NCBI GenBank assembly: GCA_010405405.1
Contig: MU004236.1
Coordinates: forward strand, 1,060,070 to 1,124,069
Length of the DNA: 64,000 nucleotides
Direction: 5' to 3'
Source of the DNA: Microthyrium microscopicum
Taxonomy: Eukaryota
The notes beneath the pieces are model-generated. The model searched no databases, had not been told where the DNA came from, and saw only the letters and a program-made list of their open reading frames with translations. Numbering within the stretch: position 1 is the first letter of the stretch; the number at the start of each line of letters is the position of its first letter. The position numbers and the translations under genes were made by a program. Below are positions 58,317 through 64,000 of the stretch, one piece after another.

Positions 58317-60381
58317 CTAGCTATGCGAATACCCGTCAGCATAGCTACTGGTACCATTGAAGATGAAGCCTTGCTGGAACGTGGTAGGTTCGGAAGCCGC
58401 GATGTCAAAGCGGAACTGTGAGCAATTGTGTACATGCATTTCTCCCGCAGCACCGCATTCGTCGCATACCTCCTGCTCCTGAGTGCTGGAAGTGTTTGGA
58501 AGGGATGATTGACTGTCACAGGGAACCTGCAAAGCTCTTGCAGGATACAAAGACGTATCATGTTGCTGTTTGAGGTGAAGTGTCCCTATGCACGGAATTG
58601 GCCACTCGTGCTTTCCGCTCTCGATGGTAATATCTTTACTAATTGGTCCTTCGTCGAGGGTCACACAGTAGTTGACACCATTGGCTGTATCCTCTTCGAT
58701 CGATACAAGCGTTCTCAAGATTTTGAGATTTGACTCGGTCATTTGATCTTTTGCAGAGCGAGATGAGTTTTCCTCTATTCTTCTAATGACACTGTCGATT
58801 CGTGCCAAATCCTGAGGTCGTTGGTGCTCAATTACGTTTCCACGTCCGAGACGGTGCCCACTCATATGTGCCAGCAAGAGAGCCACTGAGGTCGCTACAG
58901 CCTTGTCGTCGAGCGCACGTTAGGTGAGTAATCCATGATAATCTCGAACTACAAGGAATTGATCTAGAGATTCGCGACTTGCAAACACAACCGCAAGGTG
59001 ACTATACGTATGATCCGTCGGGTTGTATATGGCTCGGTCCAATGAAAGATCGTGACTGTAGATCAGGTATGGCTGGTGAAGCACGACAAGAAGCAATTAG
59101 TGATGGAATTGCCACATGAGCGAGCCAGTCTTCTCCATCGCCTCCGAGTCTTTGATGCCATCAGGAAGAGTTGTTGATACCCACCAGCTTGTAGGATAAA
59201 ACCGGTAAACTACTCTCAGCTCGTAGTCAATATCTTTCATCTCCTCATAGTCCTTAAAGTCGTCCTCCACGCTGGAATACAACCTCGGGCGACGACGAAC
59301 CCGTTGTACATTTCGTTTGAGAATGCGATCCAAGATGATAGAGTGGCTCCGCTCCAACTTTTTACCGGGAGTATTGCCATTGATGATTGGCCGACGGTTC
59401 GGTTGCAAAATCATTGCCAACAGTGGCAGGCCGAAGGCACATCATAAGCGACAACTATCGATCTCCGTACACCAGACGGAACCAGATGGACTCTCCACGA
59501 GAGCCCGCTTTCTCACCTGGTCTGGGATCTCCTAGTAGCTGCGCAACTGCTATGCCTCGGCGGACAAGAAGCCTTGCCGTACGCAGGTTTCCTATGGACA
59601 AATAATAGCAAAATTCAAGCATGAGTGTTTCTAGTCCATCAAGTGAATCGACTAGTGAGTCCTGCGAAGTCACTGATCGTGAAGCCACATCAACATAGCG
59701 CTGTGCAATGTCCCAGGTCGACTCATTGTGTGCGATTTCAGAAACACCGTTCAGTTGGTGCATACAGAGAGCGAGTTGAATAAGCTTGCGAGCAGTATGG
59801 ATCAGATGCGTGGCTGACAATGGTTGTACAGGAATGGCTTGCGATCCCAGGCCATGATCCCTTATTGCATGAACTGGAAGATTGGTGAACTTTCCTTGAG
59901 TGAGTATCAACCTGATTGTGGCCTGCTGAGGAAGAAGCGACTGTAACAGGTCGTGAGTGGAATACCTGGATGAGGGGAAGACAGAGACTTGATTGATCCA
60001 CTCAGAGGTGATTAGATGCTGCTGGCTTATACTGGTAGCTGCTACTCCGTTCAAAATAGCTCTGTTGCTGTTTTGGGTGTTGCCAGTGCCGTCGTGAAAG
60101 CTGGCCGAGCTAGATTGAGCTACAGTTACGCCTCTCTGCTGGCATAGTTGCCCAATTATGTCTTCAACCCGAACTACGCGGTCCTGGGTTTCTGGAGGCC
60201 TACCATCATTTGGGTCCGGAAAGTCCTGACTCACACAAGGCAGTCCTCGGCGCTGACAATACACACAAGTAGAACTTGATGCTGGCCTGCACTCGCATCG
60301 GGCCTTGCGGTGTTTACACTCCCAGCAGCTGAAAGTTCCTTTGCGGACTTCACGCTGTTTTTTATAGAGAGTGGACGACAT
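58317..60381 (-). pseudogene. Zn(II)2Cys6 transcription factor pseudogene
   Basis: RKGTFSCWECKHRKARC...CVYC...C cluster; the conserved frame is broken by TAG (59455), a frameshift (~59385-59400), TAA (59097) and TAA (58920), with no usable introns around them. Confidence 0.82.
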
Positions 60382-60916
60382 TGAGGAGGTTCCATGACTG
60401 CTGATTTAGATCCAACGTCCAGGAATGAACCGGTCAGGAGTTGAAGGTTGGCCTAGCTCGTGAAGGCCTTCTTGGCCTTCAAGTGACCATATAATGCAAA
60501 GGGTCATGTTAAAATGCACTCGATGACGCTCGAAGATCTGAAGCTTTGATGCCAAGCATCACCACTCTTGCTCCCTCTTATGTCTTTCACGCCGTTTGTT
60601 ACCACTCTCCTCCTTTTCCTACTTAGCCCTTTACATCTGAGGATTCTCTCTTGAGCAGTCATTCTGGCGCCCCCAAATCGGCCTGCGCCTTTTTCAAAGA
60701 AGCTTTTGGCCCCTTTATTCCGTACCTTACTCACCAGCTTCCGCCGGCGAGGCCGCCACCACACTCAGAACTTCCGATTCCAAACTCTCCCTGCCTGGAA
60801 GCATCAAGTCCAAAGTCGGATATACCGCTATCTTGTTGCCCATCAAGCGCGTAAAGCTCAACGTCTACTCGTCCGTCCGTCCCTTCGGAAGCTCTTCCCC
60901 GCGAGCACGCGACACC

Positions 60917-60958
60917 ATGCCCCGCGCAGTAAATCACACAAAGCGAACATTACAATGA
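60917..60958 (+). promoter_or_regulatory. 13-codon uORF whose TGA overlaps the APP1 main ATG (ATGA)
   Basis: accATGCCCCGC...TTACAATGA; encodes MPRAVNHTKRTLQ*; out of frame with the main ORF. Confidence 0.55.
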
Positions 60959-63408
60959 GCACGCCGAGTGAGACTTTTAATAGTGTGGCCGGGCGAATAG
61001 GCGCCTGGCGCACTGACAGCAATGCCGGTGGTCCATCCCGCGAAAGTGGTGCTCGTCGGGCTAAATTACGCGGAATGTTGAGCGGACTGAAGGACGTATA
61101 TGACCAGAAAACTGCTGGACTAGGAAGTTCGTTTCGTGGAGTCGATGATTTTGAAGGCGGGATGGCGGAGGCATATCCGGACGCCAACATTACACGCAGT
61201 GGGCACGAAGAGATGGTGCTGTTCCCAAGCTATTCACGGCGGCATGTAGCTACAGCACCAGCCAACGAGACCGACTCTGGCGCCGAAGACGAGACTGATG
61301 GTGCTGGAGAAGCCCCTGTTCATCAGCATTGGGATCAGTATGAGGATCGAGACGCCGTCGTTGACGTCGATGTGCGAGGATGGATTTATACACCTCACAA
61401 GGGACCTATGAATCGGAAGCAAAGACTGGCTTTGGGAATTGCGAGACAACTAGCAGGACTGCCAGCACCTGCTTCTCCATCCAAGAGCCCGTCTAATAGC
61501 AGAGACTCCAGTCCACATCCGATTAGGCAGAGGATGGAGGAACATAATGCCCGAAAAGAACAGAGATTGATTGATGAAGAGACTGAGAATATGGTTCATC
61601 ATGCAAAAGAGGAGGCTCATAAAGCTGAGCGTGGTGAATATAGCGAAGGCCGCTCATCCCTTCCTAAACCTCCACAAATCGATCGTCTTCAGTCTGGCAG
61701 TAGCATAAACTCTTTGACCATGGCTCAGAAACGTGCTTCGTGGAACATACCATCAGAGATGTCACAGGACGAAGTTTCAGTGGCCAACTCAAATCTCATG
61801 AGCCGTTTGAGTCCTTTTTATGCCAATCCGCAGGGTAATACTCCTGTGAGCGCATTCTTTTATAACGAGACCGACTCGAGGCAACGGACAATCTATACCA
61901 ATGCCTATGGACAGTTTGCACTTCGAGCTTCTTTGGACTTTGTTCCAACTCATGTTCGAGTACTAGCCGGAGAGGATCTTTCAGCAAATCAAGATGTCAA
62001 GATTATGGAAGCCAGTGGAATCAGCGTCATCAGTGACATTGATGACACTCTTAAGCATACCAACATGATTGGTGGTGCCAGAGAAGCCTTTCGAAATGCA
62101 TTTCTTCGTAATCTAGAGGATCTGGTTGTCGATGGCGTTCATGAATGGTTTACCCGCTTGCATGATTTGGGCGTACACTTCCACTATGTCTCGAATTCAC
62201 CATGGCAGCTGTTTCCAGCACTGTCCCGCTTCTTCGCTTCCGTGAATCTTCCACCAGGCTCATTCCATTTGAAGCAATACAGTGGAATGTTGCAAGGCAT
62301 CTTCGAACCGGTGGCCGAGAGAAAAAAGAGTACTCTTGATCGAATCGCTCGAGACTTCCCTGAAAGAAAGTTTCTTCTCATTGGGGACAGCGGAGAGGCC
62401 GATCTGGAAGTCTACTTGGACTTCGTCCGTGAGAATCCAGGTCGTGTACTTGGTATCTTCATTCGGGATGTCACCACTCCAGCATCATCAAAAGGCTACT
62501 TTGATTCTAATCTCAGGTCCAGCGTTTCTGGGGCAAACACACCAGCCAGTACAGCCAGCAGAAACCAATCCTCAGTCACTAACAGCGACGAGCACGACCC
62601 GGAACTGAAAGCCGCTATCGACGCTTCCTTACGAGAATTCGAAGCTGAGGAGGCCCGCAGAACAGGCACATCTAATACATCTCGCTCTCGACCACTTACA
62701 TCTCGCCGGAAATCCGACGATCTCATCTCCTTCAGCGACTCGGACACCGAAACCAAAACAGCACCCATACCACCGCCCTCTCGCCGCAAACCCATTGCCG
62801 ACCGCCAATCCAGCACATCAAGCGCTTCAGCAAAACTCCCACCGCCCAAACCGCACAAAAAGCCTACCCTACGCAGCTCCTCTGTCCAGTCCGCCGAAAG
62901 TGACACCGCCAAATCCGGACCACCAATTCCTCCCAAACGCGCCTCCACCATACCAACTCCCACTCCAGACCTTTCAAACAGCCTCAACAACACACCGAAG
63001 CCCACACCACCTACCCTCCCAACCCGCAATACAACCACATACACCGACGCCGCACGCTCAACCCTCGCCTCAGCATACAATGCCCTCCCCGCAGCTCCTT
63101 GGTCCGCCGCACCACCACCAGCACCACCACGTCGACCAAATGGCTCACAGCCAACGCCAAACACAGCTGCTGCTGCGGCAGGCATGACGCGAGCAGAGAC
63201 AAACCGTCTAGAATTATGGAAACGGCGCTGGGCAAACGCAGAGCATACGCTACGAAAGGAGGGGATATTACTCCGTACATGGAAAGTAGGCAGTGATGCA
63301 CTGCCAGACAGCGAACGGATCGTTAAGCGCGAGCTGGAAGCACAGGAGCGGAAGCGGGACAAGGAAGGTGGACGATTTGGGAGGGCAGGCAAACTTATAG
63401 ACAATTAA
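60955..63408 (+). CDS. APP1: Phosphatidate phosphatase App1 (actin patch protein, DUF2183); possible non-AUG N-terminal extension from 60664
   Basis: VISDIDDTLK (DxDxT), FHYVSNSPWQL, LIGDSGEADLEVY, UIM-like DPELKAAIDASLRE, Pro-rich tail, ELWKRRW...LRTW. Confidence 0.9.
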   Translation: MSTPSETFNSVAGRIGAWRTDSNAGGPSRESGARRAKLRGMLSGLKDVYDQKTAGLGSSFRGVDDFEGGMAEAYPDANITRSGHEEMVLFPSYSRRHVATAPANETDSGAEDETDGAGEAPVHQHWDQYEDRDAVVDVDVRGWIYTPHKGPMNRKQRLALGIARQLAGLPAPASPSKSPSNSRDSSPHPIRQRMEEHNARKEQRLIDEETENMVHHAKEEAHKAERGEYSEGRSSLPKPPQIDRLQSGSSINSLTMAQKRASWNIPSEMSQDEVSVANSNLMSRLSPFYANPQGNTPVSAFFYNETDSRQRTIYTNAYGQFALRASLDFVPTHVRVLAGEDLSANQDVKIMEASGISVISDIDDTLKHTNMIGGAREAFRNAFLRNLEDLVVDGVHEWFTRLHDLGVHFHYVSNSPWQLFPALSRFFASVNLPPGSFHLKQYSGMLQGIFEPVAERKKSTLDRIARDFPERKFLLIGDSGEADLEVYLDFVRENPGRVLGIFIRDVTTPASSKGYFDSNLRSSVSGANTPASTASRNQSSVTNSDEHDPELKAAIDASLREFEAEEARRTGTSNTSRSRPLTSRRKSDDLISFSDSDTETKTAPIPPPSRRKPIADRQSSTSSASAKLPPPKPHKKPTLRSSSVQSAESDTAKSGPPIPPKRASTIPTPTPDLSNSLNNTPKPTPPTLPTRNTTTYTDAARSTLASAYNALPAAPWSAAPPPAPPRRPNGSQPTPNTAAAAAGMTRAETNRLELWKRRWANAEHTLRKEGILLRTWKVGSDALPDSERIVKRELEAQERKRDKEGGRFGRAGKLIDN

Positions 63409-63920
63409 GCACTCATGAGACATGGAGCAAGATCAGAAATAGTCGATACACGATACCCCTTTTTTGATAGCGGTAGTACCTTTTAGCATTGATATGCGAA
63501 TTTAACCTCCCTTGACCCTACCTCTCTGTATGCACGTAGAATGTTGAAGAGGAAGCGTAAAGAACATGTTTTACATTTTTGGATTAATTCAGTACCCAGC
63601 ACCCTTTGATACTAGCGGAACAAACCACTAAACCTTACAGCACACAACCCAACCTTACAAGACAAAAGGCACTGAAAGGCACTGTCCGCCCCATCTAACA
63701 TAGTATCACCGTCTTTTGCTCAACCAACAAACAGACGAATCAGATGCTTATTTCTCACTGGCTGTTCTTTCGTGATTACATGCCGCTAGAATATCTCAAT
63801 ACAAGCGAAACAAAAGACAATCCCAGCCACCCACCACAATCAGGCCGGAGGAGAGGAGCCCATCGCAGGTGGAGAGACTATCGTGGGCGGAGAACCCACC
63901 GGAGGAGGTGACACAGTCTC

Positions 63921-64000
63921 CTAGGACTGCATCATCTCGTCTTCAGGATTCACCGATTGTGCCGCCGTAGTGGCAAAGTACCGCACGTCAACGTCGCCAT
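63921..64000 (-). CDS. TPD3: 3' end (partial) of PP2A scaffold subunit A (HEAT repeat)
   Basis: Reads (D)GDVDVRYFATTAAQSVNPEDEMMQS*; DVDV(K/R)YFA is the conserved C-terminus of PP2A-A. Confidence 0.75.
   Translation of the reverse strand, partial: GDVDVRYFATTAAQSVNPEDEMMQS

Follow-up and report, generated by a model that had tools for sequence, protein, structure and literature searches.

An AUG-free, most likely CUG-initiated N-terminal extension of the phosphatidate phosphatase App1 in filamentous ascomycetes

The APP1 gene of Microthyrium microscopicum raises a basic question: does its coding sequence begin at the first in-frame ATG, or does it begin some 100 codons upstream, at a codon that is not ATG at all? 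The gene lies on the forward strand near the end of a 64,000-nucleotide stretch of contig MU004236.1 (hereafter the window). An earlier note on this DNA had proposed that a CTG in the upstream open frame starts a hidden form of the enzyme, possibly one directed to an organelle.

The main ORF (60955..63408, forward strand) opens with an ATG of the annotated type (ACA-ATG-A), runs to TAA 63408 and encodes 817 aa, in agreement with the 817-aa database protein P0002. Its assignment to App1, made in the earlier note, holds: the ORF carries the HAD-like catalytic domain APP1_cat at 62020..62469 (Pfam PF09949, E 3e-50; 170.6 bits against a curated cut-off of 27.1), with DIDDT, a DxDxT motif, at 62035, and the modelled App1 body matches the Nir2 C-terminal domain as well as lipin/Pah structures. 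Two distant APP1_cat-like paralogues also occur in the genome, with 36% (L002, G000:C2:3094972-3095487) and 29% identity (L003, G000:C4:732131-732640).

Upstream of ATG 60955, the same frame is open for 100 codons, back to TGA 60652-60654. The proposed extension (60664..60954, forward strand) would add 97 codons without an in-frame AUG, for a long isoform of 914 aa, and it contains 22 Arg/Lys and no Asp/Glu in the window copy, as had been claimed; this absence is a family extreme, Asp and Glu together making up 4.6% of the pooled extensions. The proposed start, CTG 60664..60666, has A at -3 and G at +4 (ATT-CTG-G) and is the sole one of the six in-frame CTG, GTG, TTG, ACG or ATH codons in the open stretch to combine a purine at -3 with G at +4. 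It follows a CT-rich tract (60560..60650), a likely transcription start region, where C+T reaches 0.80-0.83 at 60560-60619 versus 0.40-0.53 upstream; across 42 loci, the corresponding values are 0.56 at -100..-20 and 0.47 at -300..-220. A TATAA-like element at 60490..60494 is a candidate core promoter. Also upstream of the CTG, a weak-context ATG (CTT-ATG-T) opens 24 in-frame codons that stop at TGA 60652 (60580..60654); it would act as a uORF only if transcription began upstream of it, and it is not conserved, the nearest locus (L004) having no ATG at the aligned place. One element had escaped the earlier note, namely an out-of-frame ATG at 60917 (ACC-ATG-C), in the +1 frame, which opens 13 codons (60917..60958) and whose TGA overlaps the main ATG.

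On the other strand, a divergent gene (59455-60381) starts at 60381, which leaves a promoter region of less than 300 bp common to it and APP1; its product has a Zn2Cys6-like N-terminus with a weak PF00172 match (E 0.0097, below cut-off). Just downstream of APP1, at 63647-64000, contig depth in run X1 is 1494 versus 235 in the neighbouring segment (about sixfold), suggesting a repeat. The contigs of this run, which may derive from the window's own sample, lie flat over genic and intergenic sequence alike, free of joints and differences; the run thus behaves as DNA and bears on neither expression nor splicing.

An open, Met-free frame is by itself a modest observation, as 1.5% of 300-nt shuffles produce one. 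Chance is thus not negligible for a single gene, and the case must rest on conservation.

Conservation of the extension and its start codon

Loci for comparison were fetched from metagenome DNA with two peptide patterns taken from the downstream App1 block and not from the extension. The best 80 of 124 confirmed stretches were used, and together with the window these formed 48 clusters at about 85% nucleotide identity. As the loci share ancestry, the counts given below are not independent events and overstate how many such events there were.

The extension is in frame in 45 of the 48 clusters and is restored by splicing in another; the stops or frameshifts in orthologous leaders that had been named as a refuting sign are absent from these 46. 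In the spliced cluster (L048, L049, L051 and L064), whose tip reads AAT-CTG-G, a 65-nt GT-AG intron lies inside the extension (L051:2715-2779, also in L049 and L064), and its removal, done on L051, restores the RAQSRIY motif. The extension is broken by stops or frameshifts in the remaining two clusters (L017 and L076), which implies either that the head is dispensable in some lineages or that the assemblies contain errors. Despite its broken extension, L017 keeps AAG-CTG-G and a main ORF open over the 730 residues available.

Purifying selection on the extension is evident from close pairs. Sixteen were attempted for dN/dS and 15 computed, one of them saturated; the extension gave values of 0.06-0.31 in 14 of 14 computable pairs. 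Differences in extension length were multiples of three in all 15 pairs, whereas the 90 nt immediately upstream contained frame-breaking gaps in 14 of the 15. In fact, conservation starts at the start position itself, with the nearest stop codon a median of 15 codons further upstream (range 0-107). Pooled pS is 0.42 in the extension versus 0.57 in the main N-terminus, dS being lower in the extension.

Protein databases tell a similar story. Residues 1-260 of the long form drew 257 protein matches, 120 of which were listed, and the window extension alone matches 54 other proteins of 121 searched (E<0.01). The named matches among those listed span Dothideomycetes, Sordariomycetes, Eurotiomycetes and lichen-forming groups, classes that we assume from the genus names. 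Many of the App1 models begin at the tip (L, V or M followed by AP), run through it from upstream or start at a downstream Met. A profile of 44 extensions searched against 1.84 billion representatives gave 58 matches, essentially only App1 N-termini: 51 have the downstream App1 motif, another six, all short fragments, seem to cover this region too, and the last, P0176 (E 5e-5), has a spurious look. No other protein family carrying the segment appeared in that search. Pfam contained no family for the extension, with zero matches for the window copy and eight single-member weak matches (E 0.01-0.1) among the 44, and the ESM Atlas gave no usable match when queried with a homologue's extension. 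The window copy is divergent, with 26-38% identity to the other loci and without a conserved FP pair. Taken across loci, these comparisons confirm the extension as real coding sequence.

The tip of the extension was found by its amino-acid motif, by pattern in 40 loci and by hand in 5 of 45 where the pattern had failed or mis-picked, and the DNA was read afterwards; codon identity and the -3 base were outside the pick. The start position is occupied by CTG in 26 loci, GTG in 9, TTG in 1 and ATG in 9. All 27 Leu starts are CTG or TTG and all 9 Val starts are GTG, with no other Leu or Val codon at this position; in the main ORFs, the share of CTG among Leu codons is 0.23 and that of TTG 0.19, and GTG supplies 0.26 of the codons for Val. 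Moreover, a purine stands at -3 in 36 of 36 near-cognate starts (34 of them A), whereas, of the 187 other NTG codons that are in frame within the extensions, 78 have one. G at +4 (35/36) is mostly forced by the 'AP' motif used for the pick and counts for little. No hairpin was detected 3' of the start (mean z -0.28).

The nine AUG starts belong to one Pleosporales-like clade, and each has a pyrimidine at -3 and a base other than G at +4. Thus, the upstream start is kept weak in two ways, either by a near-cognate codon with strong context or by an AUG with weak context. The annotated AUG has a strong context, with a purine at -3 in 41 of 45 loci. Eight of the nine Pleosporales-like loci (L005, L026, L027, L030, L038, L050, L061 and L062) carry an out-of-frame CTG at -4..-2 of the AUG start (CTG-N-ATG-CCC). 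This arrangement suggests that their AUG arose by a one-base insertion just behind an ancestral CUG-GCN-CCN, which would account for the weak -3 base.

A tree was built from 39 of the 45 loci and 31 database proteins, six short loci being left out and placed by best hit. Near-cognate starts occur in its Sordariomycetes-, Leotiomycetes-, Eurotiomycetes-, Lecanoromycetes- and Dothideomycetes-like groups, with changes among CTG, GTG and TTG within four class-level groups; the window gene branches among the Dothideomycetes-like loci. Three loci (L035, L055 and L062) are whole contigs whose 5' ends lie 74-137 nt ahead of the start codon and whose 3' ends lie 1-81 nt beyond the stop. They are bounded like transcript assemblies of a library type not given, and they hint, but only hint, at transcripts in which the extension is whole and unspliced.

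The CUG start proposed in the earlier note is therefore strongly supported by the comparative evidence: the purine at -3 of every near-cognate start, the dN/dS values and the 45 intact clusters. Initiation at CUG 60664 is, on these grounds, very probable. That the resulting long isoform would exist beside a short, AUG-started one is likely too, with slightly less assurance.

Structure and destination of the head

AlphaFold2 predicts a coil at the tip, one helix over residues 15-68 and a disordered linker over residues 70-125 ahead of the App1 body; the extension folded alone gave two helices. The conserved core (aa 17-61; 60712..60846, forward strand) forms one long predicted helix and has the family consensus SLLRYLFP..R.RAR..L..FR..TLP..K.RAQSRIY.YIV.RQ. 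Over these 45 aa, aromatic, aliphatic and basic residues are conserved position by position. The first 12 residues are Pro-rich (median 3 Pro), and the net charge of aa 1-30 has a median of +6 (range 3-8), with Arg at 18.7% and Lys at 5.9%.

Cleavable presequences are net positive, hold few acidic residues, form an amphipathic helix and carry an MPP motif, R-3 or R-10; a 45-aa core conserved position by position is unusual for them. The earlier note had called the head presequence-like and proposed an organelle-targeted or membrane-binding isoform, and the composition of the head does fit a mitochondrial presequence. The best Eisenberg moment is 0.36-0.71, but on the Fauchere-Pliska scale the hydrophobic moment does not exceed that of composition shuffles (median z -0.19, above 1.64 in 0/45; window z 0.98). 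Cleavage motifs are not general, occurring as R-3 in 14/45 and R-10 in 21/45, figures that carry no chance control. Mitochondria are nonetheless our single best guess for the destination of the head, held at slightly less than even confidence.

Two other addresses were rejected. A transmembrane anchor fails for lack of any transmembrane segment in the extensions (maximum 19-aa hydropathy 1.01), and a PTS2 peroxisomal signal fails because its nonapeptide is found in 0/45 extensions under the strict pattern and 1/45 under the loose one.

A minority reading, though one with a substantial chance of being right, retains the same CUG start and differs only at the step of destination. Here, the head would be a non-cleaved helix that binds a membrane or a partner, and not an import signal, with phosphatidate-rich ER, lipid droplets, the plasma membrane or an organelle surface as possible sites. 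The position-specific conservation of the 45-aa core, the Pro-rich first 12 residues and the lack of a conserved cleavage motif all argue in this direction, as does the model, in which the helix would be tethered by a 55-aa disordered linker. Its role would be comparable to that of the N-terminal amphipathic helix of Pah1, which mediates membrane interaction (PMC11832324). The unremarkable hydrophobic moment weakens this reading as well, and the net charge of +6 per 30 aa, the scarcity of acidic residues and the phi-x-x-phi-phi motif present in 43 of 45 extensions are in keeping with an import signal. In addition, leaky dual starts in fungi have mostly yielded mitochondrial forms in the published cases covered by the accessible parts of PMC7049704 and PMC6582344.

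The out-of-frame AUG and the proposed translation scheme

AUG codons are distributed unevenly along the extension. The first in-frame Met comes 96-184 codons past the start, though Met makes up 2% of the main ORF, and in the early extension only 7 out-of-frame AUGs are seen versus 27-34 expected when synonymous codons are redrawn. This avoidance implies that scanning ribosomes must cross the stretch. In the last 90 nt, the pattern is reversed: an out-of-frame AUG with a purine at -3 occurs in 42 of 45 loci versus 20-23 expected, and 200 simulations of synonymous randomisation reached a maximum of 32 loci. It is in frame +1 in 42 of 42 loci, 14-86 nt before the main AUG, and is missing from three of the four Sordariomycetes-like loci.

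The residues over this AUG vary, with D, N, H or Y followed by A, E, G, D or V, which are exactly the codon sets that permit xAT-G. Where the next base is G, NAT accounts for 0.13 of all NAT and NAC codons in the early extension and for 0.81 in the late one, the main ORF giving 0.56; where any other base follows, the share is 0.38 in the early and the late extension alike. Of course, the bare presence of an out-of-frame AUG was rejected as evidence, as five ordinary coding windows used as controls have one with a purine at -3 in 31-35 of 45 loci. Because such AUGs are this common, the late AUG is notable only when set beside the synonymous randomisation and the scarcity of AUG in the early extension.

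The small ORF that it opens stops right on the main AUG in 11 loci, among them the window, beyond it in 11 and 2-11 nt short of it in another 11, so that none of the 33 near-cognate loci with this uORF has its end more than 11 nt ahead of the main AUG. In each of the nine AUG-start loci, which form one clade, a gap of 32-44 nt separates the end of the uORF from the main AUG. Simple forward reinitiation is thus barred in 22 of the 42 loci, those whose uORF stop lies at or beyond the main AUG. From its conservation, the out-of-frame AUG should limit the shorter, annotated form, and we lean towards a trap function for AUG 60917.

Comparison across loci establishes coding selection, conservation of the start codon and its context, avoidance of AUG and a conserved out-of-frame AUG, and a scheme of translation may be proposed on this footing. 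Transcription of APP1 would begin within the CT-rich tract that precedes 60664, or close to it, and the mRNA would offer three start sites to ribosomes that scan it leakily. The smaller share of these ribosomes would initiate at CUG 60664 and make a 914-aa App1. Its basic 97-aa head would have a tip rich in Pro, then a conserved helix some 50 aa long, and then a disordered linker. The others would cross the AUG-free stretch, and most would be caught by the strong out-of-frame AUG 60917, making a 13-aa peptide that ends on the main AUG. The 817-aa form would come only from ribosomes that leak past both starts or reinitiate, although a shorter transcript could also supply it. In this manner, the trap would prevent the long form, with its weak start, from being outweighed by the short one, and the ratio of the two should respond to start-codon stringency. 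The head, for its part, would most likely direct the enzyme to, or anchor it at, an anionic membrane distinct from the actin patch. In its fullest version, in which APP1 of filamentous ascomycetes is a three-start-site translational switch whose long form, maybe the main product, brings phosphatidate phosphatase to mitochondria, the scheme is a tentative one, and we hold it at well under even confidence.

Alternative transcription starts could also produce the two forms. A long mRNA would yield the long form only, its out-of-frame AUG blocking the short one, and a short mRNA starting after the out-of-frame AUG would yield the 817-aa form. The bar to reinitiation in 22 of 42 loci speaks for this; the lower pS of the extension is compatible with an extra, DNA-level constraint there, and a second transcription start is known to back up start-codon choice in some Cryptococcus synthetases (PMC7049704, accessible text). 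We consider this unlikely, since it leaves the avoidance of AUG in the first ~200 nt of the extension, which implies scanning through, unexplained and since the gap between the out-of-frame AUG and the main AUG is only 14-86 nt.

It is improbable, too, that the CUG-started head is a nuclear or nucleolar localisation signal that places the phosphatase at the nuclear envelope. Its richness in Arg and Lys would suit such a signal, and so would the stretches of five residues, four of them basic, that 32 of 45 loci contain, but the classical K[KR]x[KR] motif occurs in only 10 of 45 loci and is absent from the window, and the best conserved residues are hydrophobic.

Very improbable is a start at an ordinary AUG on an upstream exon, with no need of a non-AUG codon. 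The earlier note had raised this alternative as ATG 60580 spliced through an intron at 60594-60737, and the intron does keep the frame and end in a CAG acceptor at 60737; in some database models, too, upstream genes or exons are joined to the extension. However, the donor of the intron, GTTTGT, departs from the consensus, and its splicing would remove the conserved LAP tip and the first conserved block. As a conserved mechanism, the spliced-ATG model was rejected: the ATG is absent from the nearest locus, and only 2 of 45 loci have a branch point together with YAG at 45 nt or less from the start. An in-frame upstream Met in an open frame was seen in L080 only, and splicing cannot account for the restriction to CTG, GTG and TTG or for the purine at -3.

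Finally, that the extension is an untranslated relic or chance frame in M. microscopicum is scarcely credible despite the rate of open shuffles, the two related loci that have lost the frame and the divergence of the window copy, which lacks the FP pair, because that copy retains the CTG, its context, the core motif, the frame and the out-of-frame AUG, and its extension alone finds 54 of the 121 proteins.

Consequences and comparison with known systems

A deeply conserved, unannotated long App1 isoform is most likely real on the comparative evidence, with CUG as its most likely start. As many App1 models start at the downstream AUG or are fused to neighbours, this form is largely hidden from annotation, tagging and proteomics. 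Models fused to an upstream short-chain dehydrogenase or DEAD-box helicase include P0012-P0015, P0021, P0029, P0072, P0180, P0186 and P0199. Such fusions probably arise as gene predictors splice the AUG-less or weakly started extension onto a neighbouring gene. Should the head redirect the enzyme, there would be a pool of phosphatidate phosphatase at a site not described for App1. Were the switch itself to operate, leaky CUG/GUG or weak AUG starts together with the trap would set the ratio of actin-patch phosphatase to the unannotated long form, and the mitochondrial phosphatidate/diacylglycerol balance would be tied to start-codon stringency. APP1 also offers a clean natural test of start-codon logic, as a strong-context near-cognate codon and a weak AUG alternate at one position and the end of the uORF changes together with the type of start codon.

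The comparisons that follow draw on the accessible portions of the cited papers. Among the papers listed from a largely open-access literature, none dealt with an App1 extension or a non-AUG start of App1; the supplement of PMC6582344 may hold an entry for yeast APP1, and that of PMC7049704 contains no mention of APP1, YNL094W, actin patch or phosphatidate phosphatase. App1 of Saccharomyces cerevisiae is an actin-patch phosphatidate phosphatase that binds Rvs161/167 (PMC4466140, PMC11832324). Mg-dependent activity and the actin-patch location are properties established for this yeast enzyme only. The window gene shares with it the APP1_cat domain with the DIDDT motif and a proline-rich C-terminal part, and those portions mention no N-terminally extended form of the yeast protein.

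Conserved non-AUG extensions as such are already known in fungi (PMC5487733, PMC7049704, PMC6582344, PMC7214817). Fungal aminoacyl-tRNA synthetases of the DualAUG and DualNCC kinds are dual-localised (Wallace et al. 2020, PMC7049704), and yeast has non-AUG mitochondrial extensions (Monteuuis et al. 2019, PMC6582344). As in the synthetases, a weak upstream start in APP1 adds a basic extension, and in both cases a weak AUG (pyrimidine at -3) and strong-context near-cognate codons interchange between lineages (PMC7049704). The synthetase and yeast extensions are predicted or shown to be mitochondrial signals, whereas the head of APP1 is ~100 aa long with a conserved core and a destination that is only proposed. 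Furthermore, APP1 has a conserved out-of-frame AUG inside the extension, and none is described for the synthetases in the accessible text of PMC7049704. In Ustilago maydis, a non-AUG start of PGD exposes a cryptic PTS2 (Kremp et al. 2020, PMC7214817). There, as in APP1, a conserved segment is hidden in an apparent 5' leader, but the APP1 extensions are without a PTS2.

A closer parallel is cpc-1, in which an AUG-free in-frame region upstream of the main AUG and its near-cognate codons are conserved across Pezizomycotina, and in which ribosomes that start upstream avoid an inhibitory uORF lying out of frame (Ivanov et al. 2017, PMC5487733). APP1 has the same combination of a conserved AUG-free in-frame region, a conserved near-cognate codon and an out-of-frame uORF that a start at this codon would bypass. 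The two differ in that cpc-1 has two uORFs and several near-cognate codons, while APP1 has one start position (CUG, GUG, UUG or weak AUG) and one short uORF near the main AUG. Likewise, cpc-1 is backed by in vitro and ribosome-profiling data, whereas APP1, which encodes a lipid enzyme, is known here from its sequence.

Finally, mammalian C/EBP alpha and beta, though unrelated as proteins, present the same order of start sites as APP1: an in-frame weak AUG or strong-context near-cognate start, then a good-context out-of-frame AUG with a short ORF, then a downstream in-frame AUG (PMC5487733). The downstream C/EBP forms come from reinitiation. For the 22 of 42 APP1 loci in which the position of the uORF stop bars simple forward reinitiation, the short form would need leaky scanning or another transcription start.
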